Source: a virus. From it: a stretch of 64,000 nucleotides of DNA. The notes under the pieces are model-generated. The model searched no databases. It was not told where the DNA came from and saw only the letters and a program-made list of their open reading frames with translations. Made by a program: the position numbers and the translations under genes. Below, in pieces: positions 5,823 through 44,327 of this stretch (position 1 is its first letter; every line of letters starts with the position of its first letter). The stretch is taken from IMG/VR virus record IMGVR_UViG_3300018080_000142, positions 1 through 64,000 of that record; one strand, written 5' to 3'.

Positions 5823-8800
5823 ATGCCAGATACTACTCGAGTATATGATCCCAGGACCGGCAAGATCACTGAACCAGGTGAAGAAAAATTCACCGGTGAT
5901 ACAGCTGCAGGTTCACCGATCGACCTGAGACCGGATGCACCAAGAGCCTACGATCCGGTAAATAACCAGATAGGTATACAGATCGATGGTGAATTCCAGC
6001 CTATATCCAGGGAACAGCATTTCTATGAAAAAGGGGTAATTCCAAAAGTTGAAAAGCAAATTGAGCAGTACGAAGAAGAACTGAGAGATTTCCGTGAAAA
6101 GATCGAGGGAACGAAATATATCACCGAGGATGAAAAAAGAAACCGGATCCTCGAGATAGATATGGAAATTACCAAGCTTCAGCAAGATCAACGCAGAGCA
6201 GCTCGTCAACAACAACCGTTCGATACTTTTGCCTTACCGGGACCTGGTACAGCCGGTGTGTCGATCCAGATGGATCCCGAGAAGCAAGGCGAGATGAAAC
6301 GGATAAATGAAGAAATCATCAGGCTTGCCAAAGAACGCAGGAACTTGGCAGAGGATCTGAAACCTGTCAGCGAGGAAGAAAAACGGGATATCAGAAACAA
6401 CTACGGTGCATTTGACGGTTTCGGTGAAATAAAAATGCATGAGAAATATGGTGTTGAAAGGTCTATGAGGATCTACCGGGAAGCTGTTTCCGATCAGCTC
6501 GATGTTCTCGCAAAGGCAAGAATTAAAGTCAACAAACCAGAAAATATCATCTCCTATGACAATATCCTGTTTGGCAAGGAACCTGAATTAAAACACACCG
6601 ACCAGGCTGGTCTCGATAAAATATGGGAGGCAGCAACTACGGATCCTGACTATGCTGACGGTGACTACGCTGCAAAACGTAAGATCCTGCATCAAAAGGT
6701 CAAAGAATTCCTGTCTGACAAAGAGGGCATAGAGGACAAGGAATCTGCATCATACAATATACTCTCGAATCTGTTGACAAAGTTCGCTCAGTCTGATGAT
6801 GGTAACTTCACCATTGAGGGACTGAAACTGTATGCCGAGCATATGTCTAACCGGGTTAATTCCATGATGGAATATTTACAGGGCAGTTTAAGCCAGGTTA
6901 AAGACGAGGATCCCCACGAGGAAAAAAGGAAGTTTGACCAGCTTGAGAGGCAATATGGCAAAGATGCTGTTAGGCAGTGGTACAATACGTTGATGTCAGA
7001 TGCCTTCCAGCTCAGGCTTGTACAGGATCAGCTTGATAAGATTCTCAAGATGCCTGAAGCTCGCAGGGGATTGAAAGATGCTGGTAAAGGATTCCTTGCC
7101 ACCCCCGCCCATGAACTCATGTTGGGAGTTTATCAACTGGCCGAGGCAATGAATGTTAATAAGATTGTTGATAAAGTCAATGACGGCAGGGAACTTACTT
7201 TCAGTGAGGATCTTGCATTGAAAGCTTATGCAACGATAAACTATGCTGGTAACTATGATACTGAAAGCACGGTATACAAGGCTACGAAAGGTATGGTTGA
7301 GATGCTTCCGTACATTGCCGAGTTTCTTATCTCCGGTCCTACATACAGTGCCATTCGTGGTGCTGCATTGAAAGGAACGACAAAGCTTGCCAGAGGTGTT
7401 ATCGGCCGGCAGGCCACTTTCCGGCTCGGAAAGAAAATATATAATGTTGCTGACCTGGCAGCATTGAATCTTGCCAGAGTCGCCGGTACAGCCGTTAGAC
7501 CAATTGCCATACCTCAAATGCCGGTGACCAAATCCTTGCAGAATATCCGTGATGATGTTGTTCTGAACCCAACGATGGAAGGTATTGAGGCTGAGGTGCT
7601 GAAAAATACCGGGGATCCACTGGCAGAAGGTATAGGAAAAGGTTACTGGTCTGCTTTCTCAGAACTGTTTACGGAAAAAATGGGAAGGCACATAATGAGA
7701 GTTATCCCGTTTGCCGGCAAGATCGGGAAACAGCTTAGCGGAAAGCAAATGGTCCAAAGGACCGTCCTGGATAGATTTATGAAGCTGAAAGGGATACAAA
7801 GTATTGAAAAGCTTGGCAGTTATATCAGCCGGAACAAGCTTGGTTGGGATGGCATCATGGAAGAATATCTCGAGGAAGTTGCCAACTACTATATGGAAAC
7901 TGCCGTAACCGGTGAAAGAGTCCACGGGAAAGAATTCTGGGATCAACAGCTTGTTACCTTTCTTACAGTAGCCGGTTTCGGTGCATTCATGAAACCTGTT
8001 CAGCTTACCCTTCATGGTGCGGTCGGCCACAAGATGAAATATACAATGGAAACACCGGAGGGTGAGATCAAGACAGTCAACCTTCCAAGACAGGTTCACC
8101 AGGATCTGATGAAGATAGTTGGTAAACCCGGTGCTTTCATTGATGACGAGGCCATAACCGGTTTCTTTGATAAATACAAAGGTGAACTCTCGAGAGAACA
8201 GTTCGATCTTCTGATGCATTTGACGGTCCAGGAAGGGCAGAAAAAGGCTCAGGAATTTGTAGCTACTCATGGTCCTGGCAGGGCAGCCAAGAGAATTGAT
8301 GAGGACGAGCTGAAGCCGGAACAGGAAATTACAGAACCCGCTCCGGAACTTTCAAAGGAGGAAGTGAGTGAGATTGAAGAAGAGAACAGGAAGATTATTG
8401 CCGAGCATCCTGACCTGGCAAGACTCGATTTACTTACGGAGGATCCTGCCACCGGTCAGCTGTTAAGTCCTAGCGAAACAGTTATTGAGCAGACACATCA
8501 GCAGATTGCCGATGAACTTGCAGAAAAAGCTGAATATGATCAGTTCGGTAATGTCACCAACCTTACTCCGGAGATTGAGAGACTTGTAGAACAGGAAGAA
8601 ACTCTGTCCAGATACAAGGATGAAATGCATGACCGGTCTGTTGATTTCGAGGATCTTTCAATATCTGATAAGCAGGAACGACTGTCCATTGAACTGCGTG
8701 AAGGAAAAACGCTGAAAGGTAAAACAACTCCTGTTACAGACCGCAGGTTTCAAGTTGAGCTTAAAGATGGCAGGAAGGTTGATGTATGGTTTCACAGGAA

Positions 8801-11800
8801 CCTGGCTCCTGATGTTGAGAAAAAAGCAAGGAAGGCAATCAACAACCATGAAAAGGTTGAACTCAGGCTTCAGGATTGGCAGGAATGGAATCCCGACAGG
8901 AATATCACCGATGAAAGCGGAGTACCATACGAGGACAGGATTCAGGCATGGATAGGTGAGAATCCCGTTGGTGCTGTCCGTGTTACCGACTTCCGCGAGA
9001 AACGCGCCCGTGCTGAAAGGGCAAGAGAGGACAGAGAGAGAGCCGTTGGTAAGCTGGCCGAGAGTACCAAGGAATTCTTTGAAGGGTTTGCCGTAAAGAA
9101 AGCTTACTCGGACGAGGAACGCAGGGACCAGGCGAAGAAGTTCATCCAGATGGTTAAGGATGCAGGTGTTCTTGCCGGCGTTGAAGTTCAGATAGCAGTC
9201 CAGAGACTTATCGAATATATCCGCGAGCTTACCAATATCGATGATGAGCAGAAAGGATATCTGATTGCACTTGTCAACCAGAACAAAAAAGAAATTGAAA
9301 GGATTGCCGCGCAACAGAGAATTAAGGAAAAAGGCTATGCAAGGAAGGCAGAGGAACTTTCCATTGATAACCTGGTCATTCCATCCATAGAAGGCGTTGC
9401 ACCTTCCGGGGCCCAGAAAATAGATGCCTTCCTTAACGGTTACGCACCAGTATGGAAAGGACTGTCTGAAAGCCTTGAAGTATCGAAGGAATCTGTAGAA
9501 AAAGCTTTTTACCAGATAGCCAGGAGAACCGATGCTTTGGGTAGCCTTCAAAATGAAGCCGTTTTTAGCTATTTTCTCGAGGGCTTGTATGCCGAGGACA
9601 GAATTAACGATGCAATAGTAGATCTCTTAAGACGCAGCTCCATATCGTCTGTACTAAGCTTATTTAACTTTTATGGTAACGTTAGGCTGACGAAACAGTA
9701 TGGAATGCTGTTTAACGGATCAACGTTCTCCATGAAGCTGCTTAACCCTTCTGAGAAGTACGATGACTTTGTCAACAGCTTTACCAATGCCGTAAAAAGG
9801 TATGAACACAAAGGATACACTGGTTACGAGGCGTTGCGTCACAGGATCTATGCACACAATGAACAGCGAGAGGAATTGTTCCATTCCAAGAATCAGGATT
9901 ACTCATGGTACTGGGATCAATCTGCCGAGCAGAGAGAAGAACTGAGAAGAACTCAGCATGAAAGGGATATCGAACTGCTTGGAGAGTTTACCGGCATTCC
10001 AACCGACACCTGGCGGGAGTACTTCACCAGTCAGACAAAGGAAACAATGGCAAAGCCTACCAAGGATGCTCCCAGGAATGCCGAATACACCACTTACGAC
10101 AACTTGCTTGCCCATGATACCTACCGGGGAAACTATCCCAGGATCCAGAGCAACATAGCTTTTAATCTTGGATTCGGTGTAATATACAACCGTGAGGAAA
10201 AGAGGCCGAGAACTCTGGAAGAATTCAAGGAAGCATTCGAGGTTTACTTTCTGCGTGGGAATGAAACCACCGGGGCATTGTCAAACCTATATAAGCTGAG
10301 TACGGCCATACAGGAGCGTGATGAAATCGGACTGTCTGGGATCGATGTAAAGGGAGACCGGTTCAGCTCATTTGTACAAAGAAGCCATCTTTTCAATGCA
10401 GCGGAGAACATTCGCAGGCTTAATGTGGATAACCGGATAACCAGGTTCTATCGTGATAAGGATAAGGAAATGGAAGTTGTCCTGGTCAACGGTCTGCACA
10501 ATACAAAGGTAAACAGGGGTAAAAAGGGAACTCATACGGTTAATCTCTCGAGCGAGGATTTGTGGCTGACCCAGATGGATTTCTTCCTACAGGAAGGTGA
10601 CACATACCTGCACTGGTTAGGTCAGTTCGGTGATAAACCGGCCGTATACTTTGCCGAAGTTCCAAAAGAGACTGAGATTACCAGCGAAAAGATATCTGCA
10701 CTCAAGAAAAAATTCCCGGATTTTGACAAGGCTGTTAAATGGGTTCACGATGAATATATCCAGCTGAATCAATCCTTTTTTAATTCCTTCCTTCTCTCCC
10801 CTACGAAAGATATTGATGCCCGCAAGAGAGAGCGTATGGATATTGCAAGGAACTTCGTCTACAACTTTGCGGTGAACATGGAGTCTTCCAATAAGATATT
10901 CCACGGCAGTCAGGAATCTTACAATGATCTCACGGATATAGTTAAACGTGGAGGCTCTACCAATTCACCAGGTTATGTATTGAATCCATACATAGAAGGC
11001 GGAGTAGGAGAAACCTTCCAGTTTGCATTGATTGAGGATCCAACATTTCTTGGACTCGAGGCATTTGACGGAGAGGAATTCATGTCAGCTGACTATGCTG
11101 AAAGAACTCAGGTATCGATGGGATCCACTCTCAGTAAAGTTGACCAGGAGGGCAATGAAATCCTTACTACAACGAAATCTCTGTTCAGCACAATAAATTA
11201 CGATACCGGTTACCGAGGACTTACAAAGACAAACCGGTTGAATATTGAAATACTTGCCAGTGCTTTCCCTGGTAGCAAGTTCGAGCATATCAGGGATTTT
11301 ATGAAAGCACACAGCATCGATGTACTTGCCGGAACTTCAGGAACCAAGAAAAGTGAGATGAATCCTGACAGGAAAGCAGTATCTATCAAGCTCTGGGATG
11401 AAGAAGGAAACTTGCTGAAGAAACCTGTCATACCTGAAAATTCAATTATTGCCAGAAATACAAGTGATGTTTTTGTGCAGCAGGATCTAAGGCATTCTAC
11501 TGAAGGCAGTCCGACAAATATGCCTTCACAGATCCCGGCGAATATGCAGGCAATCGAAAATGGTGTAGAGATCTCCCGGAAGATATTCCGCCTGCAGGTA
11601 AAAGTCATGGCTGAAATGGTCCGTGAGTTTGACGGTAAGAAGATCGATGATGTAAAGATTAAATGGCTTAAAGACCTGGTCAATGAAAATACTCAACCGG
11701 ATCTGTATCGTCTGCTCGAGGCGGGAATGACTCCTTATGAACCATCCTTTGCAAACTTCATGCGCAAGATGCTTTCTTCGGAACTCACCAGGAAGGCACT

Positions 11801-14800
11801 TGGAATACCGATAAACAGGATAACCACTATTGAGATCCTGGATCCTGGTACGACCGGTGATGAAGGTCTGTTGAAAGGCAGAACTCGTTATACGCATAAT
11901 AATGAAGAACATATCCTCTTACCGGAAATTGCATCGAATGTTGATGGTGGAAGGTATGAGAATACCAAGTTTGAGGGCCGGCCGGAAGAAGCTGTTAAGT
12001 ATGTTAGAAGGAATAAAGGAAAACATCTTGACCTCTTTACGCTTGGCGGTGAACTTATGGAATGGGAGATCTACGGCAGGGATGGTGTTATACCTGGTGA
12101 GCTGATGATATCAAACAGAGTGCCGGGAACAAACCTGCATTCGCATACTGTTGGCAGGCTGAAAGTAGGTTTTCCAGCCGGAAACTTTACAATGCTTGAC
12201 AAGGAGAGCCAGAGGAACAGCGGTTCTGACGCTGATGGTGACCAGCGGTTTAATCAGGTTTTCTATAAGGATAAGAACGGCAATATCGTTGAGGACGAAC
12301 CGGATCAGGAAACAAGGGAAGGTCTTGCCAATGATATAATGAGATTGATGGCCGAAGATTACATGAATCCGGCCTTCGATACCAGGGTAAAAAGTCCGAT
12401 CAATACAGAAGCTTATGATCCCATTCTCGATGTTATCTCAGAAAAAGAAAAGCGTGTAGAGTATACCATGCTTGATCCTCGGGGTTATGACCGGGCAAGG
12501 AATGAAAATATGGTTGGTGTCAAGATGAAGGGAATCATGACTGATGCCGTGACCACGTACAGCCTGATAGCAAACAGGAATATTCCCTTCAAGTCAACGC
12601 AACAGATAGGTAATGTGAAGCTGACCGGTTTTGTCAAGGATCCTCTCGGTTATATGAAGGAACATCTTGCAAACTTTGTCAACCTCGCCTTTGACAATGC
12701 TGCTGATCCAAAGATTGAAAGGCTCGGTTTGAATGAGCATACAGCGAATATGTTCGTCATTGCATTGCTTGGAAACCGGGGGCTGGATACAAGGAATCAG
12801 GATGAGATACTGAAATACATTGAAAAGATCGCAAAGTATTTCACTTCACCGATCATGCGTGACTTTACAGAACGGATGAGAAGGGATTCCGGTGGCATGA
12901 GAGCTGTCGATCTTAAGGACGTGGCGAAGAATCTGAAGAATAAATACAAGCCTGAATCTGTTGACCAGATGATTTCGTTCTATAAGAGGGCAAGGGAGTT
13001 TCCGGATCTGAGGAGGTTCTATAGTCTCACACAAAATGCACCTGGCAGTGTGGTTGAATACGTTCTTGATCAGTCATTGTATGACAAGGTCAGAAACAAT
13101 GGGTTTAGATTCATCGATGTTAAGAGACTTTTCGGTAAAAACGATCTTCCGATAGTCCAGTTTGCATCATCCGCAGGATCTCTAAGAGTATCCAAAGATT
13201 ATATCTTCGAAGATACTTTCGATCAGTCGATTGTCGGCCAGGAGCTATACCGGTATATCAGTACGCTTCTTCGCAAGAAACCTGGTGGGTTTACAATGGA
13301 TCAGCTTATCTCTGTATCCAGGGGAATCAACAATATGGCTGCCATACGTGCCATAGGTGTCAAACAAAACATGAGATCTCTCGAGAGTGAGCTTCTGTCA
13401 AATCTTGATAGCTACCGGGAGAAATATCCCGATAATCTGTTCCTTGAGACAGTTCAGAAAGTCAGGCGTAAAGGAAATGATTACCTCGAGATACTTCCTG
13501 ACTACCGGAAAAGCAAGATCGGTGATGTGAAGCTTGCAAATACTCGGAATGATTTCGACCGGCTGAGTGATGATCTTAAGGATAAGTTCGCTGCTTATGC
13601 CTTGTATCGTTGGGGAGCAACTACAAGTACTTTCGGTGGATCCTACTACAATCTGTTCGGTGACGGATATCGTATAGACCTGTCATTGAGAATGCAGGAA
13701 GAACTTCTGTCATGGCAGTTGAATGAGCTTTCTTCCGTTGAGAAACTACAGATCGGTGAATGGATACTCAGAGCATCCAGGGATCCAAACCTGCGTAAAG
13801 TATCTGCGGTTAATCCTGCCTATGAAAATTACTACGACTATAATTCCCTTTCAACAATAGACTTTCCCATCTCTTACGAGGCAATGGACGGACTTCACGG
13901 TGTCTCGAGTATGGAGGATCTCAGCGAATATTCGGAAACACATCAGTTTGATGCCGAGGCATTGCTGGATTACATAGAGAAACAAACCGGTTCAAGGAAG
14001 GTAGTAAGGTTTGCCAAAGGAAAAGTGCAAGAATTCAGGGACAGAGCAATGAAGTTCTTCCCGCCGAACACTACTGCTCCGGAACCGTTAAGAGATATGA
14101 TGCCGTCAAGTGGTATTGGTGAGGCGTTAGCAAGTGAGGATCCGGAACTTCAGGATTTTATTTTTACCCGCCTGCGTAAAATGTATCCTGGGGTCCGGAT
14201 CTTTGCCAGCAGAGATTCTTTCATGGAATTTGTCGAGAAACATGGTGGTCGCGGTTTCAATGTCAATCCGGAGGCCATAGGTAACGCTTTCAAGAATGCC
14301 ATCCGGATCGATCCTGAGAAGGCTGAACAATCAACAATGTTCCATGAATATGCACACATTTACTGGGATGCCCTTCCAGATGACAATAATGTAAAGACCG
14401 ACCTGAGAAATATGTATTATGATCTCTATGCCGACAAGATATTTACATTGGAGGATCTTGATGAAATGATCATAATTGATATCGGTAAGGCTGGTGTAGA
14501 GCGTGGCAGGCTTAAGTTCGAAGGTTTACGACTGGAAAGATTCATGGATCTGTTAAGACAGTTCTGGATCGAGGTTAAGAAGCTGCTTGGATTTGCCAGC
14601 AGACAAGACCTGGTTGATGATCTTACGAATGATATCTGGGAGAACTCCGGCAGGATCAGAACTGAAACTGCATTTGGCGAGGCTGTTGTTCATAATATGA
14701 TATCGTACAACTTCAGTAGTGAAAATATGCCGGGTTTCAATGGTGCTGAACATACTCATTACATCGGTGACAAGCCGGTAACGAGTGTTACCTCTGTGAT

Positions 14801-17800
14801 CGGTACTGAGTTAAAGTCAGATATCTTTAATCCGTCTGCAGTTGCGATGAAAAGCGCTCAGAACTTTGAAAGGATTTACAGCAACTATACCAAGGAAAGA
14901 CTTGGTGAAAAGGAACTCGAGGAGGAAGCTCAGGCTGATCTGGTCATATGGGATGAAAAGACTGAACGCGGAAATACTGCACACAAAGTAGCCGAAAGTG
15001 TGTTTGGCAATGCCATTATAACAAAGGATGACATAGCATGGTTTGAAGATCCGGCTGATTATCGCAAGCTCAGGAACAAACTACTCGAGATAAAAGACCA
15101 CATACTTGCAAGATTCCCGAAAGCAGAGTTCTATCCTGAACGTCATGTCATATCCAAGAAATTCAAGATAGGTGGTTTTGTTGACCTGGTCGTTGATATC
15201 GGAGATAACAAATTGCTGGTATATGATTTCAAGACTGTTGAGAGCCAGCTTGCAGATGATGAAGGTAAAGCATTGCCTGATTACAAGAAAGCTTACGGCC
15301 TGATGAAACCGCCGTTCCAGCATCTCAGCAACTCGAAGTACACGGAGCATATGCTTCAAACGAATATGTATTCTTCCATCCTCGAGGAACAAACGGATCC
15401 GGAAAAACCAGGTCAAGTAAATCAGGTAGTTGAAGTGCGTATCGTACCGATTATTCGTAAAATTGATCCGGAAACGGGAAAATTCACGGATGTTAAGCTT
15501 GGCAATGTTGTCAAGATCCCGAGAAATGATAAAACAATTCAGATCGCTGAAAGAGTGATGGGTCACAGTGTTCTACTACGTGAGGATTTTGACAGGATCT
15601 ATCCGGATTTCAAGGCCAACCTAGAGAAGCTGAAGGTAGCTCCTGTAATAATAAAGGATACGCTCACTGCATTCCATTTTGTAAAGCAGCTGTCACCTGA
15701 TGTAAGTAAGTTCAGCAGAGCTAACGTTTCCGATGCAAGGACTGCCGGCCTGCAGGCGATGAAAGGCATCCTCATTGACCGTGGGTTTGATATGTCAGAC
15801 TTCCGTGGTCCAAGAAAGATGAGTTTCGAAGAACTATTCTACATAGCATATGCTGAGAAACATATCACTAAGCAGATGTTGCTGGATCCTGACAGCGGTG
15901 TATCGCTTGATTCTTTGTTTCCGGAACAGGAAGTGTATAAGAAACTCACTCCAAAACCTAACCCGGCTGCTAAAAAGAGCAGTTGGCACAGAGTAAAACT
16001 CGGCGATAAGGATTATTTACTTCAGGACGTTGGCATAAACAATGCTTCTGTCGGTGATGATGTCATGCGTATATATGATTTCAAATGGAAATCCGGCCGG
16101 ATGGGAAGGAATCATTACAGGTATACTATCCTGAAAATCGATAAGAAAAAAAGAAGGTTCTTTATCCACAATGTAGATTCCGGTGAGGATCACTGGGTTT
16201 CCGTACCTGGAAAGACCGATGGATTCCTGAAGATCCATGCCGACTTGCCGGAAGGTGTCCAGGAACCGGGAGAAGATTCCTTTGTCTCGAGATACATCTA
16301 CGAGGCTGAATCAATCAGAGAAAAGCATTACAAGTCAGATTTCAAGATCGGTGAACCGGCCGAAACAGTCGAAGGTGAACAGGAGCGCAACCGCAAGGAA
16401 AGGCAGTTAAGAGAGATCTGGAAGTTCTTCAGGCAGTATGATGACATGGAAAAGGTTGAGGAATTCCTTAACGATGAAAAAGCAGTGGAGGACTTTTATG
16501 AGATAATGGCATCTGTAGATGCAGAGTTCGGTACACACCTGCAACTATTCATACGTGATGAAGGCGTAAATAATATGCTTGCCAGTGCTGTCAGGAGGGA
16601 ACTGCAGGGATTTGAGGATGTCCCTGATCAATTACTTCCTATGACTACGAACCTGTATTACATGCTCACAATGAACCAGAAGGAAGTCTGGAAGAACTTT
16701 GATAGGCTTAACACTTTCAGGCTTACCATGCCGGCTAGGATGATAGAAATGCGATTTGTACCACTGAGTATGTTTACCACACAGACTGCCGTATCGATCA
16801 AGAAATATAATCAGGAGGCATTTGATCTTACCAGGTCATTCCGAAGATTCGCCAGAGGGAAAGTAAATGTCGAGCTACTTATTGTTGAGGATGGTGAAAG
16901 GCTTTACTGGCGCAGGCCGACTTCTGCAATGAAGGAGGATCACCCACTTGAGTTTGAATTTCTCAAGGAGCTTTACAGATATTACGAATACTTCGATCCT
17001 GAGATGAAAAGATACAAAGATACCGAGCAGGGTTTAACAAAAAGGATCCCGGTGACACAAATCTTTGCATCCAGGAGTGAAATGATCGACAGGTATGGTG
17101 GCAAATGGGGTCCTGTTCTGTACCAAAGATTACAACCAAAGGCTTATGATCATGTTAAGGTGAAACTTATACATGAGATCAATAAGGAAACCGGTGAGGT
17201 CAAGTATCTTGAGGATAGTGATGGTAAACCAGTTTATAGGACATTGAAGCAGATCAAGGAAGGATTCATATTTGACAGGAGTGATCCTGTTGAGCTGGCG
17301 AAGATACTTGGTCCGAGATGGAAAAATATAATGCGTATACCCGGTACTGTACCTGTAGCTGGTAAAGCCGGGCTACTTAATCATTATATTAAGCAGGCAA
17401 TCCAGATATATCGCAAGGGTGGTGACCAGAATAACCTATCAGCCAATATTAATCAATCCAAGCGAAGAATTCCGATGGCCGGAAAAGGATCCACTGTATA
17501 TGCTACTGAACATTACGTAGAGGCCGAAGAAAAATCCATCAACAGCATGATGAAACGGTTCTACCTGAAAAGGATGATGGCTCCCCTGGATTGGATGCTC
17601 GATATGTATGGATCCTATTCGTCAGAATCCAAAGACGAGGATAACTTGATCATGAAATATCTGCGCGTCTGGGGTGAGTACCAGCTGTACGGAAAGAAGC
17701 CGACTGCTGCATTTGAATGGCTTGGAAGTCAAACAATGTCAGATCTAGTAGACGTTGGTAACAGAGCTAATAGCTGGAATAAGATTCTCTTTTCATTGAA

Positions 17801-19424
17801 AACACAGTTTATTAACCTTGCCATTGGTCAGGGAATGGACATAATTCGGGAACCTGGTGCATACATAAGAGGACTTGAGAGAATGTTCGGTTCGGGTGGT
17901 CCGATTAAGAATATTACAAAGGCATGGAGGATTCTGCGTAGATACAAGCTTGCAAACATTGTTAGTGATGTTACATTCGACCAGATTGATAAGGAATTCA
18001 GACTTATGGGTATAGATCTGTCAAAAATTGAGAAAGTTGGTTTTTGGCCTATGGAAGCAGCTGAAAAGCTTAACCAATTTCCAATATTTATAGGTTTGAT
18101 GACCGATGCAGAGTGGAATGCTTATGACAGTACAGGTAAAGTAGTTGACAAGAAAAATGCAATGTCATTCTGGCGAGCCTTAATGCTTGAGGGCAGGGTC
18201 CAGGATATTCATGGTGATTACGGTACAGAAAATGCAGCACCTTTATGGCTAGGTAATACAGGTAAAGCATTACTTCAGTTCAGGAAATGGTTACCAGCAA
18301 TGATCTGGGCTCATCTTGCCCCGTATCATATCGACAGGAATATGGCAGTACGCAGTGGGATCCTGCCAACAGTACATTTGATGGCTAAAGTGATCTCGTA
18401 CAATGTAAGGACCACACAGGAAAAGCAGGAGCAACGTGCCAAGAAAATAGAAGAAATGGCTGAGCGCGGTGAGTTTGCGAATGAAGCATTCTTCAGGAAT
18501 GTAAGCGAATATATGGATACCCTTGTACATGCCGTAAATGGTAAGAAAATACAATGGAAGGATCTCTCTGAAAGTGACAAGAGGAATATCCGTTCATTTG
18601 CAATAGAGGTAATGTTATATGCTGCTATGACATTTACGTACCTTGCAATAATGGGACCTGGTGATGAAAAGACATTCAGGGATTACAGAAAAAGAATATT
18701 TGCTCCATTGTTCAAACGATATCAAGGTGATGTTTTCTGGATCTTTACACCTGATAACTGGCAATATTTCAGCGAACAGATGGTCCCAATGATCAGCATT
18801 ATAGCAGGATCAGTGAAATTTATGTCTGATGCTACCTGGTATATCTATTCGCTTATCGATCCTACAAAAGCTCCCAATGCACTGTATAATAAAGATACAT
18901 TAGTTGCAAGAAAGGGATTCCCAAAGTTTATCGTATCGGGATCATATATAGCGCCCGGTGGTAGTTTGATGAGACATGCAGCAGTAATGATTCGCAGAAA
19001 AAGATTGAAACGCACTCCGGTTGACCTTGAACAGTTCGGTCTGACTTCGGAAGATTTAATTGATTTCGGTGTTCAGGAAGGTGAACTTAATGAATTCAAC
19101 CTGATCGAAATGTCATACAAATATGAAAGGATAATGCGTGACTTACGGCAGGCTGCCAAGTACAATGCATTAAAGAATAAAAATATCGATCCTGATTGGT
19201 TCATGGATCTCGAGACCGGTGAAGATCTGTTACGGTCGGAGGCTGACCAGCTGAAAGACTTGCTAAGAATGATCCAGATTGAACAGCAGGCACTGGATGG
19301 AGAGATCGATCTTGAACAGGTTCAAAAGGATGCTGCAGAGTACCGGAAACTGGAAAAAGCTCGTCAGGCACGTCCAAAGAGAAAAACAAAGCGTAAATTT
19401 AGAGAGGCAATACAACAAAAATAA
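5823..19424 (+). CDS. Giant virion-associated DNA-dependent RNA polymerase polyprotein (two-barrel RNAP with zincin-like and PD-(D/E)xK domains)
   Basis: 4533 aa. Catalytic-type motif GSDADGD (DADGD at 12228-12242) preceded by ISNRVP (beta-prime R-x-P motif). HEYAH at 14343-14357. PD-(D/E)xK motifs (RGNTAH, GFVDLVV, VYDFKT, MLQTNMY) at about 14750-15450. crAss-like synteny. Confidence 0.8.
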   Translation: MPDTTRVYDPRTGKITEPGEEKFTGDTAAGSPIDLRPDAPRAYDPVNNQIGIQIDGEFQPISREQHFYEKGVIPKVEKQIEQYEEELRDFREKIEGTKYITEDEKRNRILEIDMEITKLQQDQRRAARQQQPFDTFALPGPGTAGVSIQMDPEKQGEMKRINEEIIRLAKERRNLAEDLKPVSEEEKRDIRNNYGAFDGFGEIKMHEKYGVERSMRIYREAVSDQLDVLAKARIKVNKPENIISYDNILFGKEPELKHTDQAGLDKIWEAATTDPDYADGDYAAKRKILHQKVKEFLSDKEGIEDKESASYNILSNLLTKFAQSDDGNFTIEGLKLYAEHMSNRVNSMMEYLQGSLSQVKDEDPHEEKRKFDQLERQYGKDAVRQWYNTLMSDAFQLRLVQDQLDKILKMPEARRGLKDAGKGFLATPAHELMLGVYQLAEAMNVNKIVDKVNDGRELTFSEDLALKAYATINYAGNYDTESTVYKATKGMVEMLPYIAEFLISGPTYSAIRGAALKGTTKLARGVIGRQATFRLGKKIYNVADLAALNLARVAGTAVRPIAIPQMPVTKSLQNIRDDVVLNPTMEGIEAEVLKNTGDPLAEGIGKGYWSAFSELFTEKMGRHIMRVIPFAGKIGKQLSGKQMVQRTVLDRFMKLKGIQSIEKLGSYISRNKLGWDGIMEEYLEEVANYYMETAVTGERVHGKEFWDQQLVTFLTVAGFGAFMKPVQLTLHGAVGHKMKYTMETPEGEIKTVNLPRQVHQDLMKIVGKPGAFIDDEAITGFFDKYKGELSREQFDLLMHLTVQEGQKKAQEFVATHGPGRAAKRIDEDELKPEQEITEPAPELSKEEVSEIEEENRKIIAEHPDLARLDLLTEDPATGQLLSPSETVIEQTHQQIADELAEKAEYDQFGNVTNLTPEIERLVEQEETLSRYKDEMHDRSVDFEDLSISDKQERLSIELREGKTLKGKTTPVTDRRFQVELKDGRKVDVWFHRNLAPDVEKKARKAINNHEKVELRLQDWQEWNPDRNITDESGVPYEDRIQAWIGENPVGAVRVTDFREKRARAERAREDRERAVGKLAESTKEFFEGFAVKKAYSDEERRDQAKKFIQMVKDAGVLAGVEVQIAVQRLIEYIRELTNIDDEQKGYLIALVNQNKKEIERIAAQQRIKEKGYARKAEELSIDNLVIPSIEGVAPSGAQKIDAFLNGYAPVWKGLSESLEVSKESVEKAFYQIARRTDALGSLQNEAVFSYFLEGLYAEDRINDAIVDLLRRSSISSVLSLFNFYGNVRLTKQYGMLFNGSTFSMKLLNPSEKYDDFVNSFTNAVKRYEHKGYTGYEALRHRIYAHNEQREELFHSKNQDYSWYWDQSAEQREELRRTQHERDIELLGEFTGIPTDTWREYFTSQTKETMAKPTKDAPRNAEYTTYDNLLAHDTYRGNYPRIQSNIAFNLGFGVIYNREEKRPRTLEEFKEAFEVYFLRGNETTGALSNLYKLSTAIQERDEIGLSGIDVKGDRFSSFVQRSHLFNAAENIRRLNVDNRITRFYRDKDKEMEVVLVNGLHNTKVNRGKKGTHTVNLSSEDLWLTQMDFFLQEGDTYLHWLGQFGDKPAVYFAEVPKETEITSEKISALKKKFPDFDKAVKWVHDEYIQLNQSFFNSFLLSPTKDIDARKRERMDIARNFVYNFAVNMESSNKIFHGSQESYNDLTDIVKRGGSTNSPGYVLNPYIEGGVGETFQFALIEDPTFLGLEAFDGEEFMSADYAERTQVSMGSTLSKVDQEGNEILTTTKSLFSTINYDTGYRGLTKTNRLNIEILASAFPGSKFEHIRDFMKAHSIDVLAGTSGTKKSEMNPDRKAVSIKLWDEEGNLLKKPVIPENSIIARNTSDVFVQQDLRHSTEGSPTNMPSQIPANMQAIENGVEISRKIFRLQVKVMAEMVREFDGKKIDDVKIKWLKDLVNENTQPDLYRLLEAGMTPYEPSFANFMRKMLSSELTRKALGIPINRITTIEILDPGTTGDEGLLKGRTRYTHNNEEHILLPEIASNVDGGRYENTKFEGRPEEAVKYVRRNKGKHLDLFTLGGELMEWEIYGRDGVIPGELMISNRVPGTNLHSHTVGRLKVGFPAGNFTMLDKESQRNSGSDADGDQRFNQVFYKDKNGNIVEDEPDQETREGLANDIMRLMAEDYMNPAFDTRVKSPINTEAYDPILDVISEKEKRVEYTMLDPRGYDRARNENMVGVKMKGIMTDAVTTYSLIANRNIPFKSTQQIGNVKLTGFVKDPLGYMKEHLANFVNLAFDNAADPKIERLGLNEHTANMFVIALLGNRGLDTRNQDEILKYIEKIAKYFTSPIMRDFTERMRRDSGGMRAVDLKDVAKNLKNKYKPESVDQMISFYKRAREFPDLRRFYSLTQNAPGSVVEYVLDQSLYDKVRNNGFRFIDVKRLFGKNDLPIVQFASSAGSLRVSKDYIFEDTFDQSIVGQELYRYISTLLRKKPGGFTMDQLISVSRGINNMAAIRAIGVKQNMRSLESELLSNLDSYREKYPDNLFLETVQKVRRKGNDYLEILPDYRKSKIGDVKLANTRNDFDRLSDDLKDKFAAYALYRWGATTSTFGGSYYNLFGDGYRIDLSLRMQEELLSWQLNELSSVEKLQIGEWILRASRDPNLRKVSAVNPAYENYYDYNSLSTIDFPISYEAMDGLHGVSSMEDLSEYSETHQFDAEALLDYIEKQTGSRKVVRFAKGKVQEFRDRAMKFFPPNTTAPEPLRDMMPSSGIGEALASEDPELQDFIFTRLRKMYPGVRIFASRDSFMEFVEKHGGRGFNVNPEAIGNAFKNAIRIDPEKAEQSTMFHEYAHIYWDALPDDNNVKTDLRNMYYDLYADKIFTLEDLDEMIIIDIGKAGVERGRLKFEGLRLERFMDLLRQFWIEVKKLLGFASRQDLVDDLTNDIWENSGRIRTETAFGEAVVHNMISYNFSSENMPGFNGAEHTHYIGDKPVTSVTSVIGTELKSDIFNPSAVAMKSAQNFERIYSNYTKERLGEKELEEEAQADLVIWDEKTERGNTAHKVAESVFGNAIITKDDIAWFEDPADYRKLRNKLLEIKDHILARFPKAEFYPERHVISKKFKIGGFVDLVVDIGDNKLLVYDFKTVESQLADDEGKALPDYKKAYGLMKPPFQHLSNSKYTEHMLQTNMYSSILEEQTDPEKPGQVNQVVEVRIVPIIRKIDPETGKFTDVKLGNVVKIPRNDKTIQIAERVMGHSVLLREDFDRIYPDFKANLEKLKVAPVIIKDTLTAFHFVKQLSPDVSKFSRANVSDARTAGLQAMKGILIDRGFDMSDFRGPRKMSFEELFYIAYAEKHITKQMLLDPDSGVSLDSLFPEQEVYKKLTPKPNPAAKKSSWHRVKLGDKDYLLQDVGINNASVGDDVMRIYDFKWKSGRMGRNHYRYTILKIDKKKRRFFIHNVDSGEDHWVSVPGKTDGFLKIHADLPEGVQEPGEDSFVSRYIYEAESIREKHYKSDFKIGEPAETVEGEQERNRKERQLREIWKFFRQYDDMEKVEEFLNDEKAVEDFYEIMASVDAEFGTHLQLFIRDEGVNNMLASAVRRELQGFEDVPDQLLPMTTNLYYMLTMNQKEVWKNFDRLNTFRLTMPARMIEMRFVPLSMFTTQTAVSIKKYNQEAFDLTRSFRRFARGKVNVELLIVEDGERLYWRRPTSAMKEDHPLEFEFLKELYRYYEYFDPEMKRYKDTEQGLTKRIPVTQIFASRSEMIDRYGGKWGPVLYQRLQPKAYDHVKVKLIHEINKETGEVKYLEDSDGKPVYRTLKQIKEGFIFDRSDPVELAKILGPRWKNIMRIPGTVPVAGKAGLLNHYIKQAIQIYRKGGDQNNLSANINQSKRRIPMAGKGSTVYATEHYVEAEEKSINSMMKRFYLKRMMAPLDWMLDMYGSYSSESKDEDNLIMKYLRVWGEYQLYGKKPTAAFEWLGSQTMSDLVDVGNRANSWNKILFSLKTQFINLAIGQGMDIIREPGAYIRGLERMFGSGGPIKNITKAWRILRRYKLANIVSDVTFDQIDKEFRLMGIDLSKIEKVGFWPMEAAEKLNQFPIFIGLMTDAEWNAYDSTGKVVDKKNAMSFWRALMLEGRVQDIHGDYGTENAAPLWLGNTGKALLQFRKWLPAMIWAHLAPYHIDRNMAVRSGILPTVHLMAKVISYNVRTTQEKQEQRAKKIEEMAERGEFANEAFFRNVSEYMDTLVHAVNGKKIQWKDLSESDKRNIRSFAIEVMLYAAMTFTYLAIMGPGDEKTFRDYRKRIFAPLFKRYQGDVFWIFTPDNWQYFSEQMVPMISIIAGSVKFMSDATWYIYSLIDPTKAPNALYNKDTLVARKGFPKFIVSGSYIAPGGSLMRHAAVMIRRKRLKRTPVDLEQFGLTSEDLIDFGVQEGELNEFNLIEMSYKYERIMRDLRQAAKYNALKNKNIDPDWFMDLETGEDLLRSEADQLKDLLRMIQIEQQALDGEIDLEQVQKDAAEYRKLEKARQARPKRKTKRKFREAIQQK

Positions 19425-39359: not shown

Positions 39360-39815
39360 TTAAAATAGTGTTAATTGTTCCTGTTGTTTTTCTTCTCTTG
39401 GCATGAATATCAGCTCATCACACATAACATACTCTTGCTTACCCTTTTTAACCCTCATACCGTTATAAGTGAACCCGTGATGATATTCACCATCATCTTT
39501 CAAATAATTCAATTTCGAGGCTTCCTGGTGTGTATGAGACTTCCCTTTGTAATATTCGATCGGAACCAACCGGTATGTGGTGACATTCGTTCTTACGCCA
39601 CCATAACTACCTGTAAATTTCATTCCCGTTGATATTCTCAGACCGTCTTTCCACTTAAAAGGCTTTCTGAAAGTACTTTTCTGGCCTATCATATCTGCGC
39701 TGTAAGATTCTGCTATATCGCCTCCTGGGATAGATCTGCCTTTATCAGCATCCCAGGAACTACTCTTAAATCTTGCAGGATCAGCATAGACTATGTTCTC
39801 AACATTTTCTTTCAT
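39360..39815 (-). CDS. Hypothetical protein
   Basis: 151 aa, ending in EQLTLF (resembles a beta-clamp-binding motif). Confidence 0.5.
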   Translation of the reverse strand: MKENVENIVYADPARFKSSSWDADKGRSIPGGDIAESYSADMIGQKSTFRKPFKWKDGLRISTGMKFTGSYGGVRTNVTTYRLVPIEYYKGKSHTHQEASKLNYLKDDGEYHHGFTYNGMRVKKGKQEYVMCDELIFMPREEKQQEQLTLF

Positions 39816-40270
39816 AACATATTGGCATCGGCAAAACTGAAGTGTGATTCATTAGTTATGATAATATGATCGAGTACCTGAATAGACAATAATTTCCCGG
39901 CATCAATAATCATATCAGTCATATTTTTGTCTGAACCGCTAGGCTCAACATTGCCTGACGGATGGTTATGTGCTACAATCAATGATGTTGCTTGAGCTTT
40001 CAGAGCCGTAGCAAACATGATTCGATTATCAACAGTAGTGCCTGCCATGCCTCCATTCGACAAATTCAGTACGCCGAGTACTCGATTTGAATTATTCAGC
40101 AAGATTACTTTAAATGACTCCTGGATCCTGATACTGTCCGGATCCCATACCCTGCGTAGAATTTCTACGGCTGCATCTGAATTCTGTATCTGCGGACGAT
40201 CCGAAGCTTTTATCTCTGGATTGTACTTCAGCTGGATCTCACATACCTTGGTTAACTGCTCATTATCCAT
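39812..40270 (-). CDS. radC: RadC-like JAB domain protein
   Basis: QESFKVILLN...AHNHPSG..EPS..D...VLDHIII. Confidence 0.88.
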   Translation of the reverse strand: MDNEQLTKVCEIQLKYNPEIKASDRPQIQNSDAAVEILRRVWDPDSIRIQESFKVILLNNSNRVLGVLNLSNGGMAGTTVDNRIMFATALKAQATSLIVAHNHPSGNVEPSGSDKNMTDMIIDAGKLLSIQVLDHIIITNESHFSFADANML

Positions 40271-42852: not shown

Positions 42853-42893
42853 AAAAAAGGGAAATAAGCTACTATACTTCACTTATTTCCCCC
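42853..42893 (-). terminator. Intrinsic terminator closing the tmRNA transcript
   Basis: Minus strand: 10-bp stem GGGAAATAAG...CTTATTTCCC followed by TTTTTT. Confidence 0.8.
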
Positions 42894-42894
42894 G

Positions 42895-43350
42895 AACACA
42901 GATAGCTGTCAAGCAGCTAACCGATGCTCTTGATCGAAACGACTTTCGCCGATTAAACCTGATTGCTACAATATTCCAGGCCGATTATACGCTGTCAAAA
43001 CATTCAGCCCCAGGCATGAGGACTTCCGGATAAACGGTGTTAAAGCATCGCCCTCAAATGCGTCACCATGTAGCTGACATCAGGTGTTGATGTCTGTAAT
43101 ACGACCGGCCAGTATTACGCTACACTCCGGCATTTTCTGAACAACTGGCAAATTACAAAGAGCGCCGATGGCGGGAGCGACCGCTTTACCGGGGAGATCT
43201 CGAGTGTCGTGAGACACCCGTACCATCCGGCTATTCCCTATCCAATCATCACGACAACACCGCAATAATGGAAAACAGGAGCCATCTATTTGTGGAGCTG
43301 GGCGGTAACGAGCCGCCGTCCAAACGTACCGTTCCTGGTACAGCAATCAG
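42895..43350 (-). ncRNA. ssrA: Circularly permuted (two-piece) tmRNA gene
   Basis: Acceptor piece ~43350-43293 ends GGAC-GGCGG-CTCGTTA-CCGCC-CAGCTCC-A. Coding piece starts at 43011 (GGGGCTGAATGTTTTGAC). The acceptor stem has 7 bp with G3-U70. Tag ORF 42950-42909 reads GESRFDQEHRLAA*, with the stop in the loop of a TAGCTG/CAGCTA hairpin. Confidence 0.9.
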
Positions 43351-43352
43351 TA

Positions 43353-43360
43353 CAAAGTTA
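43353..43360 (-). promoter_or_regulatory. Bacteroidota-type -7 promoter element upstream of the tmRNA acceptor piece
   Basis: TAACTTTG (TAnnTTTG) just before the first paired base of the acceptor piece. No canonically spaced -33 TTTG seen. Confidence 0.5.
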
Positions 43361-43397
43361 GTTAAAAGTTTAAAAAGGAAATAATTTCAAGACTTCA

Positions 43398-44327
43398 TCA
43401 GGATCTCGGATATCTTTCGTGATACAATACCCATAGATAATCCTTATCAAGCCTGTTAGCAGTACTTTCATTGTATTCAAAGTCCCGGTCGTTCATAATG
43501 GTAAAGGATCCGCTCCAACGGCCACCACGCTGAGACCGGTACTGTTCAACCTGTTCTTTTGTCACTTTCGCACCAAGCAAAAGACGCATTACATGATTCT
43601 GCCTGGGAGTTTCCAACAGAAGTAATTTCTTCATCAGGAACCGTCCAAACGATCTTGGCATACAGTCAAGCTGTTCTGCCCGGCCATACAAACCATATAC
43701 CGGTGGAATGAGTTTTAACCACTTTTGCTTACGCCTGTTAACAGCAAGGAATTCATGCTTACGATTCATATATTCTTCCTGGGTAACTTCACGTCTGACT
43801 CCGAGGATCAGCTTCCATAGCTTAGACCAGAGAATTGTTACAATCATTTCAGGTATTGACCAGAGATAATAAAGGATTTCTGCCCATACCTTGCCACACA
43901 ATGACAATGCCCATAGATGGAAATCAATAGTTTTCTTCCCTGCTCTTTTGCTGAAGGAAAACCTCCAAGGTATTTGATGATAGAACAACCACACTGAGAA
44001 TGTTGGTCTGGTCTTGCTGATCATTTGCAATGTTGTTGACAGGTGGTCACGACTCATATCCATTCTGTCATAATAGTGTGGATATCTCCAACCGAACAGG
44101 AAATGACCATGTGGACCACCTTCTTTTCTTTCCCAGCATGAACGGATCCCTTTTTCGAATCTTGGATCCTTATAGGTTCTCCTGGCCCTCTCAGTACGTG
44201 ATATCGCATCGCCTCTGCCTTCATCACCATAGCGGTCATAATGGAGATTCTTGCAGAGCATCATATTGTCCTGAACAAAGAACATATGTTCCTGACTGTC
44301 CGGATCGTAAATCACTTCATAACTCAT
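43398..44327 (-). CDS. Hypothetical protein
   Basis: 309-aa, W/R-rich ORF. No family recognised. Confidence 0.6.
   Translation of the reverse strand: MSYEVIYDPDSQEHMFFVQDNMMLCKNLHYDRYGDEGRGDAISRTERARRTYKDPRFEKGIRSCWERKEGGPHGHFLFGWRYPHYYDRMDMSRDHLSTTLQMISKTRPTFSVWLFYHQIPWRFSFSKRAGKKTIDFHLWALSLCGKVWAEILYYLWSIPEMIVTILWSKLWKLILGVRREVTQEEYMNRKHEFLAVNRRKQKWLKLIPPVYGLYGRAEQLDCMPRSFGRFLMKKLLLLETPRQNHVMRLLLGAKVTKEQVEQYRSQRGGRWSGSFTIMNDRDFEYNESTANRLDKDYLWVLYHERYPRS

Follow-up and report, generated by a model that had tools for sequence, protein, structure and literature searches.

The minus strand of a 64,000-nucleotide (nt) stretch of viral DNA, IMG/VR record IMGVR_UViG_3300018080_000142 (the window), carries at 42853 to 43360 what is very probably a true gene, kept by selection, for a pseudoknot-free transfer-messenger RNA (tmRNA) that is circularly permuted and made of two pieces; it belongs to a family found in phages of Bacteroidota. 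This reading is supported by sequence, structure, homology, covariation and conservation. A first-pass annotation of the DNA had proposed a phage-borne permuted tmRNA without pseudoknots and with its own tag, and all sequence elements quoted there were present on the minus strand at the coordinates given. A full-length match to a permuted-tmRNA model, the fold and the covariation with a syntenic orthologue bear out that proposal.

The two pieces were folded together with RNAcofold without constraints. The minimum free energy structure (-79.6 kcal/mol) comprised a 7-bp acceptor stem with the wobble pair G3-U70, a 5-bp T-arm and an inter-piece helix (P2) of 7+2+5+12 bp, about 26 bp in all. It also yielded a hairpin with the stop codon TGA in its loop and a terminator, all helices being intact, and so reproduced the pairing drawn in the first-pass annotation. 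The interaction energy of the pieces was -16.9 kcal/mol as compared to -5.7 ± 3.0 kcal/mol with a shuffled acceptor piece; the best single shuffle reached -20.6 kcal/mol and was stronger than the native piece. The alanine identity features are present with G3-U70 and the discriminator base A73. P2 is separated from the resume codon by only 8 nt, and the hairpin and the terminator follow the tag. The tag frame ends in UUA GCU GCU UGA after UUUAAUC-GGC, which gives a hydrophobic ...AA C-terminus.

RF04321, the merged permuted-tmRNA model of Rfam 15, aligned with the locus over its full length (model positions 1-213) and in permuted order. The match had 37.5 bits with an E-value of 1.1e-5 against all Rfam and of 1.9e-7 for RF04321 over the 93.7-kb genome. 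The search was run with permissive thresholds; the gathering cut-off of RF04321 is 47 bits and is an operational, not a biological threshold. Verified relatives fall on both sides of it with 35.3, 40, 44.4, 44.9, 46.2, 48.0 and 48.6 bits. The low score of the window copy is due to its variant elbow and not to the length of its spacer, because a member with canonical loops and a 266-nt spacer scores 62.1 bits. The beta_tmRNA model gave only a partial 13.8-bit match at the locus, and the clade-specific models do not fit. RF00023, the model of one-piece tmRNA, had no match at the locus in either the gathering-level or the permissive search. As PK1-PK4 and the single-piece order of a classical tmRNA are absent, the locus was not filed as one. 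Relaxed ARAGORN made a call at -ps90 for the gene re-joined as one piece and at -ps80 for the native sequence. The tag it proposed, GLEYCSNQV*, overlaps P2 and was rejected as implausible.

We regard the comparison with a syntenic orthologue on contig L352 (SDBU01016907.1) of a related phage as the decisive evidence, at the level of sequence, that the locus is real and conserved. The contig has the order tmRNA, 98-aa gene, 311-aa gene as in the window phage, the two proteins being 33% and 57% identical, respectively. At the nucleotide level these flanking genes showed 52% and 63.5% identity, while the acceptor piece showed 79% and the coding piece from its 5' end to the resume codon 85.5%, with the first 27 nt identical. 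The tag open reading frame (ORF) was 64% identical, the first ~190 nt of the spacer 61% and its last 90 nt 43%. The helices differed by five double compensatory changes. Two were located in P2b (CCAGG/CCUGG in the window phage, CCAAA/UUUGG in L352) and three in the T-stem (GGCGG/CCGCC and CGGGU/ACCCG, respectively). The L352 tag is GNNQFAKAEHRIAA, and the ending EHR[L/I]AA is common to both phages. L352 also has an equivalent terminator and an upstream box TATATTTG. It shares the P2 layout and a partly homologous spacer with the window copy, yet has a 740-nt spacer and a 6-nt T-loop of the UUUCGAC type. L352 and a further phage contig, L354, fold into the same architecture as the window copy. 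The comparison argues directly for purifying selection, which acts both on the structure of the RNA and on the C-terminus of the tag. Among the outcomes that the first-pass annotation had named as speaking against it were no model match and no compensatory changes in homologues. A match was obtained, albeit below the gathering score, and the compensatory changes against L352 removed the second objection.

That annotation had further implied that such a gene was new to crAss-like phages. This was not borne out. RefSeq NC_055868.1 (crAssphage cr50_1) carries a feature 'tmRNA, SsrA' at 39374-39869, and RF04321 matched full length in five Suoliviridae, i.e. cr124_1 (63.3 bits), cr50_1 (60.3), cr10_1 (49.6), cr273_1 (46.2) and cr131_1 (35.3). 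Table S1 of PMC9004378 lists cr10_1, cr50_1, cr114_1, cr115_1, cr125_1, cr130_1, cr131_1, cr272_1 and cr273_1 as 'Permuted'; the paper describes a two-piece tmRNA in the OM43 phage Melnitz and 53 two-piece forms among phage genomes. In other papers on crAss-like phages tmRNA appears solely as an ARAGORN annotation step. Pseudoknot-free permuted tmRNA of crAss-like phages is on record, has not been analysed and bears no formal family name.

The 5' tRNA-like motif was found in 73 IMG/VR contigs. A search for a T-arm and a complementary acceptor strand sorted the loci into 35 permuted, 24 one-piece and 15 unresolved ones. The 35 include the window copy and L036; L325 among them was dropped as a doubtful parse. 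More than 30 permuted copies thus exist in IMG/VR besides that of the window. Consequently, the permutation belongs to a whole, widespread family of phage genes and is not, as had been assumed, an event in this phage. The following counts refer to a family set of 36 distinct permuted members, among them the five genes of Suoliviridae. The acceptor stem was paired at all seven positions in 36/36 members; G3-U70 did not vary, and positions 4-7 showed compensatory changes. The T-stem covaried at positions 1, 2 and 4. P2a, the first 7 bp of P2, was paired in register in 76%, compared to 37-55% with the partner shifted, and covaried as well. Covariation, for which the first-pass annotation had proposed a search of related phage contigs, was seen both in L352 and across the family. 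RF04321 scores of family members ranged from 35 to 64 bits. The motif TAnnTTTG, which we take to be the Bacteroidota -7 promoter box and which TAACTTTG upstream of the window gene matches, occurred 39-51 nt upstream of GAC in 10 of 34 members against a background of 2.4%. Many members that lack it sit directly behind a tRNA gene.

The window copy has the attributes of this family: it is permuted, has no pseudoknots, does not encode CCA, begins with the Bacteroidota-type 5' motif and places GGC after a UUAAA-type context. The Suoliviridae genes likewise run from the acceptor piece through the spacer to the coding piece, have no pseudoknots, show a discriminator A followed by a non-CCA tail and have GGC after the UUAAA-type context. 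They differ in tags that begin with GN... and end in VA, GA or AA instead of GE...LAA, in a normal D-loop (UGG) and canonical T-loops (UUCGA), in spacers of 70-214 nt and in their origin from gut instead of sediment. The nucleotide similarity to the Suoliviridae genes was below detection, and blastn of the locus against the INPHARED phages returned no match. Thus the locus is a sound addition to a known, little-studied family; it is not new in kind and its novelty is modest. Particular to the window copy are the subgroup with a short D-loop and a non-canonical T-loop, a long and partly conserved spacer and the absence from two complete relatives.

Other RNA elements were noted near permuted tmRNA genes. 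The spacer of L036 gave a match just below threshold to the DUF3800-VIII RNA motif at 7058-7120 (+), with 37.6 bits at a cut-off of 40.2. RAGATH-22 and RAGATH-9 RNAs above threshold were found at L030 879-1045 (cr50_1) and L031 2934-3112 (cr10_1); in these gut crAss-like phages they and several tRNAs are near neighbours of the permuted tmRNA genes.

The assignment to a Bacteroidota type made in the first-pass annotation was supported by the 5' motif, the resume context, the tag and the ACAA tail. The 5' motif GGGGnTGA(2-4 nt)GTTTTGACAGCG was found in more than 120 bacterial genome contigs, and 78 of the 80 titled loci belonged to Bacteroidota, mostly Bacteroidales, including sediment and marine genera. 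Our comparison set consisted of 81 delimitable one-piece genes of Bacteroidota, with T-loops parsed in 80. Their tags are of the form GE...LAA (GENNYALAA in 54 of 81) and their resume context is TTTAAnT-GGCGAA, which reads GTTTAATC-GGCGAA in the window copy. They rarely encode CCA, and their commonest tail, CAA, is that of the window copy; the statement that CCA is not encoded is correct. In terms of the RNA, the one-piece SsrA (RF00023) of Bacteroidales, Marinilabiliales and others shares GGGGnUGA..GUUUUGACAGCG, UUUAAnU-GGCGAA, GE...LAA and the CAA tail with the window copy. On the other hand, the one-piece genes have a median length of ~399 nt and canonical T-loops, whereas the window copy is permuted, ~210 nt long when mature and free of pseudoknots. 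Bacteroidota one-piece tmRNA has four pseudoknots. In sequence, only the T-loop deviates clearly: each of the 80 loops parsed from Bacteroidota starts with TTC and has A58, while the window copy reads CTCGTTA. Judged by these motifs the lineage signal of the window copy is that of Bacteroidota. In run X1, probably the sediment sample from which the phage sequence derives, a separate 25.4-kb contig of greater depth (21.5) matched window positions 43287-43321, i.e. 35 nt of the T-arm and the acceptor 3' end, with 4 mismatches; it may carry a cellular, perhaps a host, tmRNA or tRNA.

The two-piece tmRNAs of Alphaproteobacteria, a betaproteobacterial group and cyanobacteria (RF01849-RF01851) share the permutation, the two paired pieces and an excised spacer with the window copy. 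These lineages retain one or more pseudoknots. Permuted IMG/VR copies of alpha, beta or cyano appearance encode CCA, unlike the window copy. It is plausible that the permutation of the phage family is separate from theirs. Marine T4-like phages such as Melnitz also carry a two-piece tmRNA (PMC9004378).

The window copy is part of a subgroup whose D-loop analogue, GAAUGUUUUGAC, is shortened and has one G in place of UGG. Within the 36-member set 3/3 short-D-loop members had non-canonical T-loops (CUCGUUA, UUCGAAG and UUCGUUG) as opposed to 0/33 members with a normal D-loop. A metagenome scan for the short-D-loop variant added loci beyond this set, so that the subgroup includes the environmental phage contigs L352, L346, L354, L343/L355, L290/L348/L351 and L353 as well as L350. 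The joint change of D-loop and T-loop has thereby been seen in three lineages from IMG/VR and about four from metagenomes. L346 has the exact T-loop CUCGUUA on a different T-stem and acceptor stem, and L354 has CUCGUUG on different stems and the tag GNIFLQEVRLAA*. RF04321 scores of the subgroup were 48.6, 48.0, 44.9, 44.4 and 40 bits. The members resemble the window copy in GAAUGUUUUGAC and their unusual T-arms; those other than L352 have unrelated spacers and tags. No TerL match to the window phage was obtained from the phages whose tmRNAs are most similar, a weak negative as the comparison lacked a positive control. Elements that consist only of a tRNA-like domain were seen in L072, L064, L135 and L152 (GGGGCUG, ~40-50 nt, T-arm and acceptor end, no tag region); the T-loop of L072, AUCGUUA, resembles CUCGUUA.

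The spacer of the window copy is 281 nt long and is the longest among the permuted IMG/VR members (20-281 nt). Its folding energy showed no excess over shuffled sequences (z -0.87), and it has neither an ATG ORF of at least 20 aa nor an Rfam match. However, window positions 43103-43292 (-) are homologous to L352 7270-7482 (-) and include an identical 16-nt block, UCCCGCCAUCGGCGCU. The first ~120 nt can be folded into a two-hairpin domain closed by GAUGGC/GCCAUC, in which four pairs are changed on both sides in L352; this consensus is suggestive, as it is built from two sequences. The 740-nt spacer of L352 has no ORF above 54 aa. A validated two-block pattern of the spacer found no match in IMG/VR. 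The conserved first ~190 nt may contain a second functional RNA. The spacers of L343/L355, L290/L348/L351 and L353 share blocks of their own (UCCAACCG..., CUUGrGGGAU..., GAGGAGC..., UUUUCCyCCCC), which are unrelated to the window spacer and have no Rfam match; a different conserved element thus occupies the same slot. More speculatively, and with a low probability in our estimate, the subgroup may be a functionally distinct tmRNA with a co-adapted elbow, the long spacer may not be a throw-away segment, and the precursor might also deliver a second small RNA by the same RNase P and 3'-end processing.

From established tmRNA biology we infer transcription, processing, charging, tagging and a benefit for the phage as follows. 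The locus has features of a transcription unit of its own, with the family-enriched TAnnTTTG upstream and a terminator downstream. A single transcript would begin immediately 3' of the TAACTTTG box and end at the terminator. RNase P would cut 5' of G43011, and the acceptor piece would be trimmed after A43293 and receive CCA from the host CCA-adding enzyme, as would the products of the host's own CCA-less tmRNA genes. The acceptor piece of ~58 nt and a coding piece of ~150 nt would be held together by the acceptor stem and the ~26-bp helix. Host alanyl-tRNA synthetase would charge the RNA by recognition of G3-U70 and A73, and host SmpB and EF-Tu would deliver it to stalled ribosomes. Translation would resume on GGC, which is placed 5 nt behind UAA in UUUAAUC; the corresponding site of E. 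coli tmRNA is UAGUC-GCA. (A)GESRFDQEHRLAA would then be added as a degradation tag ending in LAA. The phage may profit from a higher ribosome-rescue capacity or from a tag of its own during infection.

Several observations weigh against this reading. The RF04321 score of 37.5 bits is below the gathering cut-off of 47. ARAGORN at default stringency called nothing at the locus, be it native, spacer-shortened or re-joined as one piece, and Rfam at the gathering threshold was likewise silent; the check with these programs suggested in the first-pass annotation thus succeeded in its permissive part (the full-length RF04321 match and ARAGORN at -ps90/-ps80) and failed at default settings. The T-loop CUCGUUA lacks U54 and A58, both of which are present in 80/80 parsed Bacteroidota one-piece genes, and the D-loop analogue is short of one G. 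PK1, which is missing here, matters in E. coli tmRNA. The absence of smpB, first noted for the window, extends to the whole 93.7-kb genome, in which no SmpB was found. Finally, the complete relatives G001 (80.5 kb) and G007 (94 kb) and several fragmentary relatives showed no such gene. These relatives were found through TerL and the 311-aa protein; a search via the 309-aa protein encoded upstream returned none. Weak RF04321 matches in G001 and G007 were located inside coding sequence and were rejected. G001 keeps the genes downstream of the tmRNA position in synteny. Absence from these relatives means that the gene is dispensable for the lineage; its occurrence is that of an accessory, mobile gene within a variable region.

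Could the locus encode a real, conserved tRNA-like RNA that does not support productive trans-translation, e.g. a decoy for, or modulator of, the tmRNA-SmpB system of the host, or a mimic for another purpose of the phage? The non-canonical T-loops and the shortened D-loop affect the part of the molecule where the tRNA elbow is formed and SmpB is contacted, and the lack of PK1 and of a phage SmpB would suit a decoy. Mini versions without a coding sequence (CDS) exist in viral contigs, and a precedent has been reported with the CDS-less form of mycobacteriophage DS6A. PMC11915505 cites a phage tmRNA without a CDS as an inhibitor of endogenous tmRNA in E. coli. Yet a pure decoy needs no tag, whereas the locus has an intact tag frame with a canonical end, ...LAA*, and a resume context of Bacteroidota type, and EHR[L/I]AA* is kept in L352 despite only 64% nucleotide identity of the ORF. 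We consider this explanation unlikely. If the locus were what is left of a captured tmRNA gene that is decaying and has lost its function, this would account for the sub-threshold score, the odd T-loop, the missing copies in two complete and several fragmentary relatives and a spacer longer than those of the other IMG/VR members. But conservation is higher in the RNA parts than in the protein genes that flank them, there are five double compensatory changes relative to L352, all helices and the tag frame are intact, and the T-loop variant recurs in independent lineages. Decay is therefore very improbable.

Least credible of all, the resemblance to tmRNA might be incidental, with the locus either being the remnant of a phage attachment site (attP) derived from a tmRNA gene or coding for a protein. 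The 3' end of ssrA is carried by phages that use this gene for integration (PMC4383910), and an 88-aa ORF with a TTG start is present at 43346-43080. However, both halves, the tag and the terminator are present in permuted order. No tyrosine integrase was found in the genome, and the TTG start of the 88-aa ORF lies inside the acceptor piece; the ORF has no PHROG or Pfam match, and L352 does not preserve it as a reading frame. Both ideas were rejected on these grounds. Thus we favor the view that the locus encodes a permuted, pseudoknot-free tmRNA, the features of which are compiled in the table.

Table. Features of the permuted tmRNA locus, as positions in the window and read on the minus strand.
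Feature	Position	Strand	Remarks
Promoter-like motif, weak copy	43368..43385	-	consensus about AAGCAATTATTTTCYTTTWAAA; similar copies elsewhere in the genome; putative promoter
TAACTTTG box	43353..43360	-	fits TAnnTTTG; 3' end 2 nt from the acceptor piece
Acceptor piece, 58 nt	43293..43350	-	ends GGAC-GGCGG-CTCGTTA-CCGCC-CAGCTCC-A
Inter-piece helix P2, 3' strand	43350-43323	-	within the acceptor piece
GGAC	43321-43318	-	within the acceptor piece
T-stem GGCGG/CCGCC	43317-43313 / 43305-43301	-	from sequence, RF04321 alignment and fold
T-loop CTCGTTA	43312-43306	-	same loop in L346
Acceptor 3' strand CAGCTCC	43300-43294	-	pairs with GGGGCTG
Discriminator A	43293	-	followed by CAA, CCA not encoded
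Intervening spacer, 281 nt	43012..43292	-	begins with CAA; presumably excised
tRNA-like domain, 5' half	42994..43011	-	acceptor 5' strand GGGGCTG and shortened D-loop analogue AATGTTTTGAC
P2, 5' strand	42959..42993	-	AGCGTAT, CCTGG and TGTAGCAATCAG with internal loops between; minimum free energy fold
Resume context GTTTAATC	42958-42951	-	directly before the tag ORF
Tag ORF GGC...TGA, 13 codons	42950-42909	-	encodes GESRFDQEHRLAA*
Hairpin TAGCTG-CTTGA-CAGCTA	42903..42919	-	stop codon TGA in the loop; helix-5-like
Intrinsic-terminator-like hairpin GGGAAATAAG...CTTATTTCCC, then TTTTTT	42853..42891	-	from sequence and fold; 13-nt loop
Second hairpin	42852-42833	-	3' of the terminator-like hairpin

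The coding piece from 43011 onwards reads GGGGCTGAATGTTTTGAC. A sigma-70-like match inside it was at chance level. Because the criteria of our hairpin listing exclude a 13-nt loop, the listing contains the hairpin at 42852-42833 and omits that at 42853-42891.

The full virus record comprises 93,679 nt with a G+C content of 42.9% and is rated complete by CheckV. The genome encodes a primase/helicase, TerL and a portal protein; ARAGORN found no tRNAs in it. TerL is 23-28% identical to TerL of Crassvirales, which makes the virus a distant crAss-like phage. A 4,533-aa ORF at 5823-19424 (+) of the window is similar in size to the giant virion proteins of crAss-like phages that contain RNA polymerase. 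Public runs place the phage in sediment and seawater metagenomes. Run X1 holds the phage, X2 and X3 hold identical short contigs without sequence variants, and no RNA run is listed among the public runs with phage sequence.

The intergenic motif resembling AAGCAATTATTTTCYTTTWAAA occurs on the minus strand at about 37164, 41372, 42834, 43385 and 50444, and on the plus strand of G001 at about 49284, 54459, 56070 and 59832. In both phages the copies lie 15-35 nt upstream of start codons of replication and early-region genes. By its placement the motif is probably a class of phage promoter. Just upstream of the tmRNA gene a 309-aa protein is encoded (43398-44327, -), which has no Pfam or PHROG match. 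A weak homologue with 25% identity (E-value 7e-14) is encoded in L353 (9662-10597), ~2.4 kb from its permuted tmRNA.

Taken together, the locus shows that these reduced two-piece tmRNAs, a poorly studied family of gut crAss-like phages, also occur in a divergent lineage from sediment. Default annotation by ARAGORN and Rfam gathering scores misses a part of this family. Its RNAs are among the smallest tag-encoding tmRNAs, with no pseudoknots and an altered elbow of D-loop and T-loop. They are natural minimal substrates for asking what a tmRNA needs for SmpB binding, frame setting and tagging. That the genes are accessory and patchily distributed suggests an advantage for phages in adjusting ribosome rescue or the tagging of proteins in their Bacteroidota hosts.

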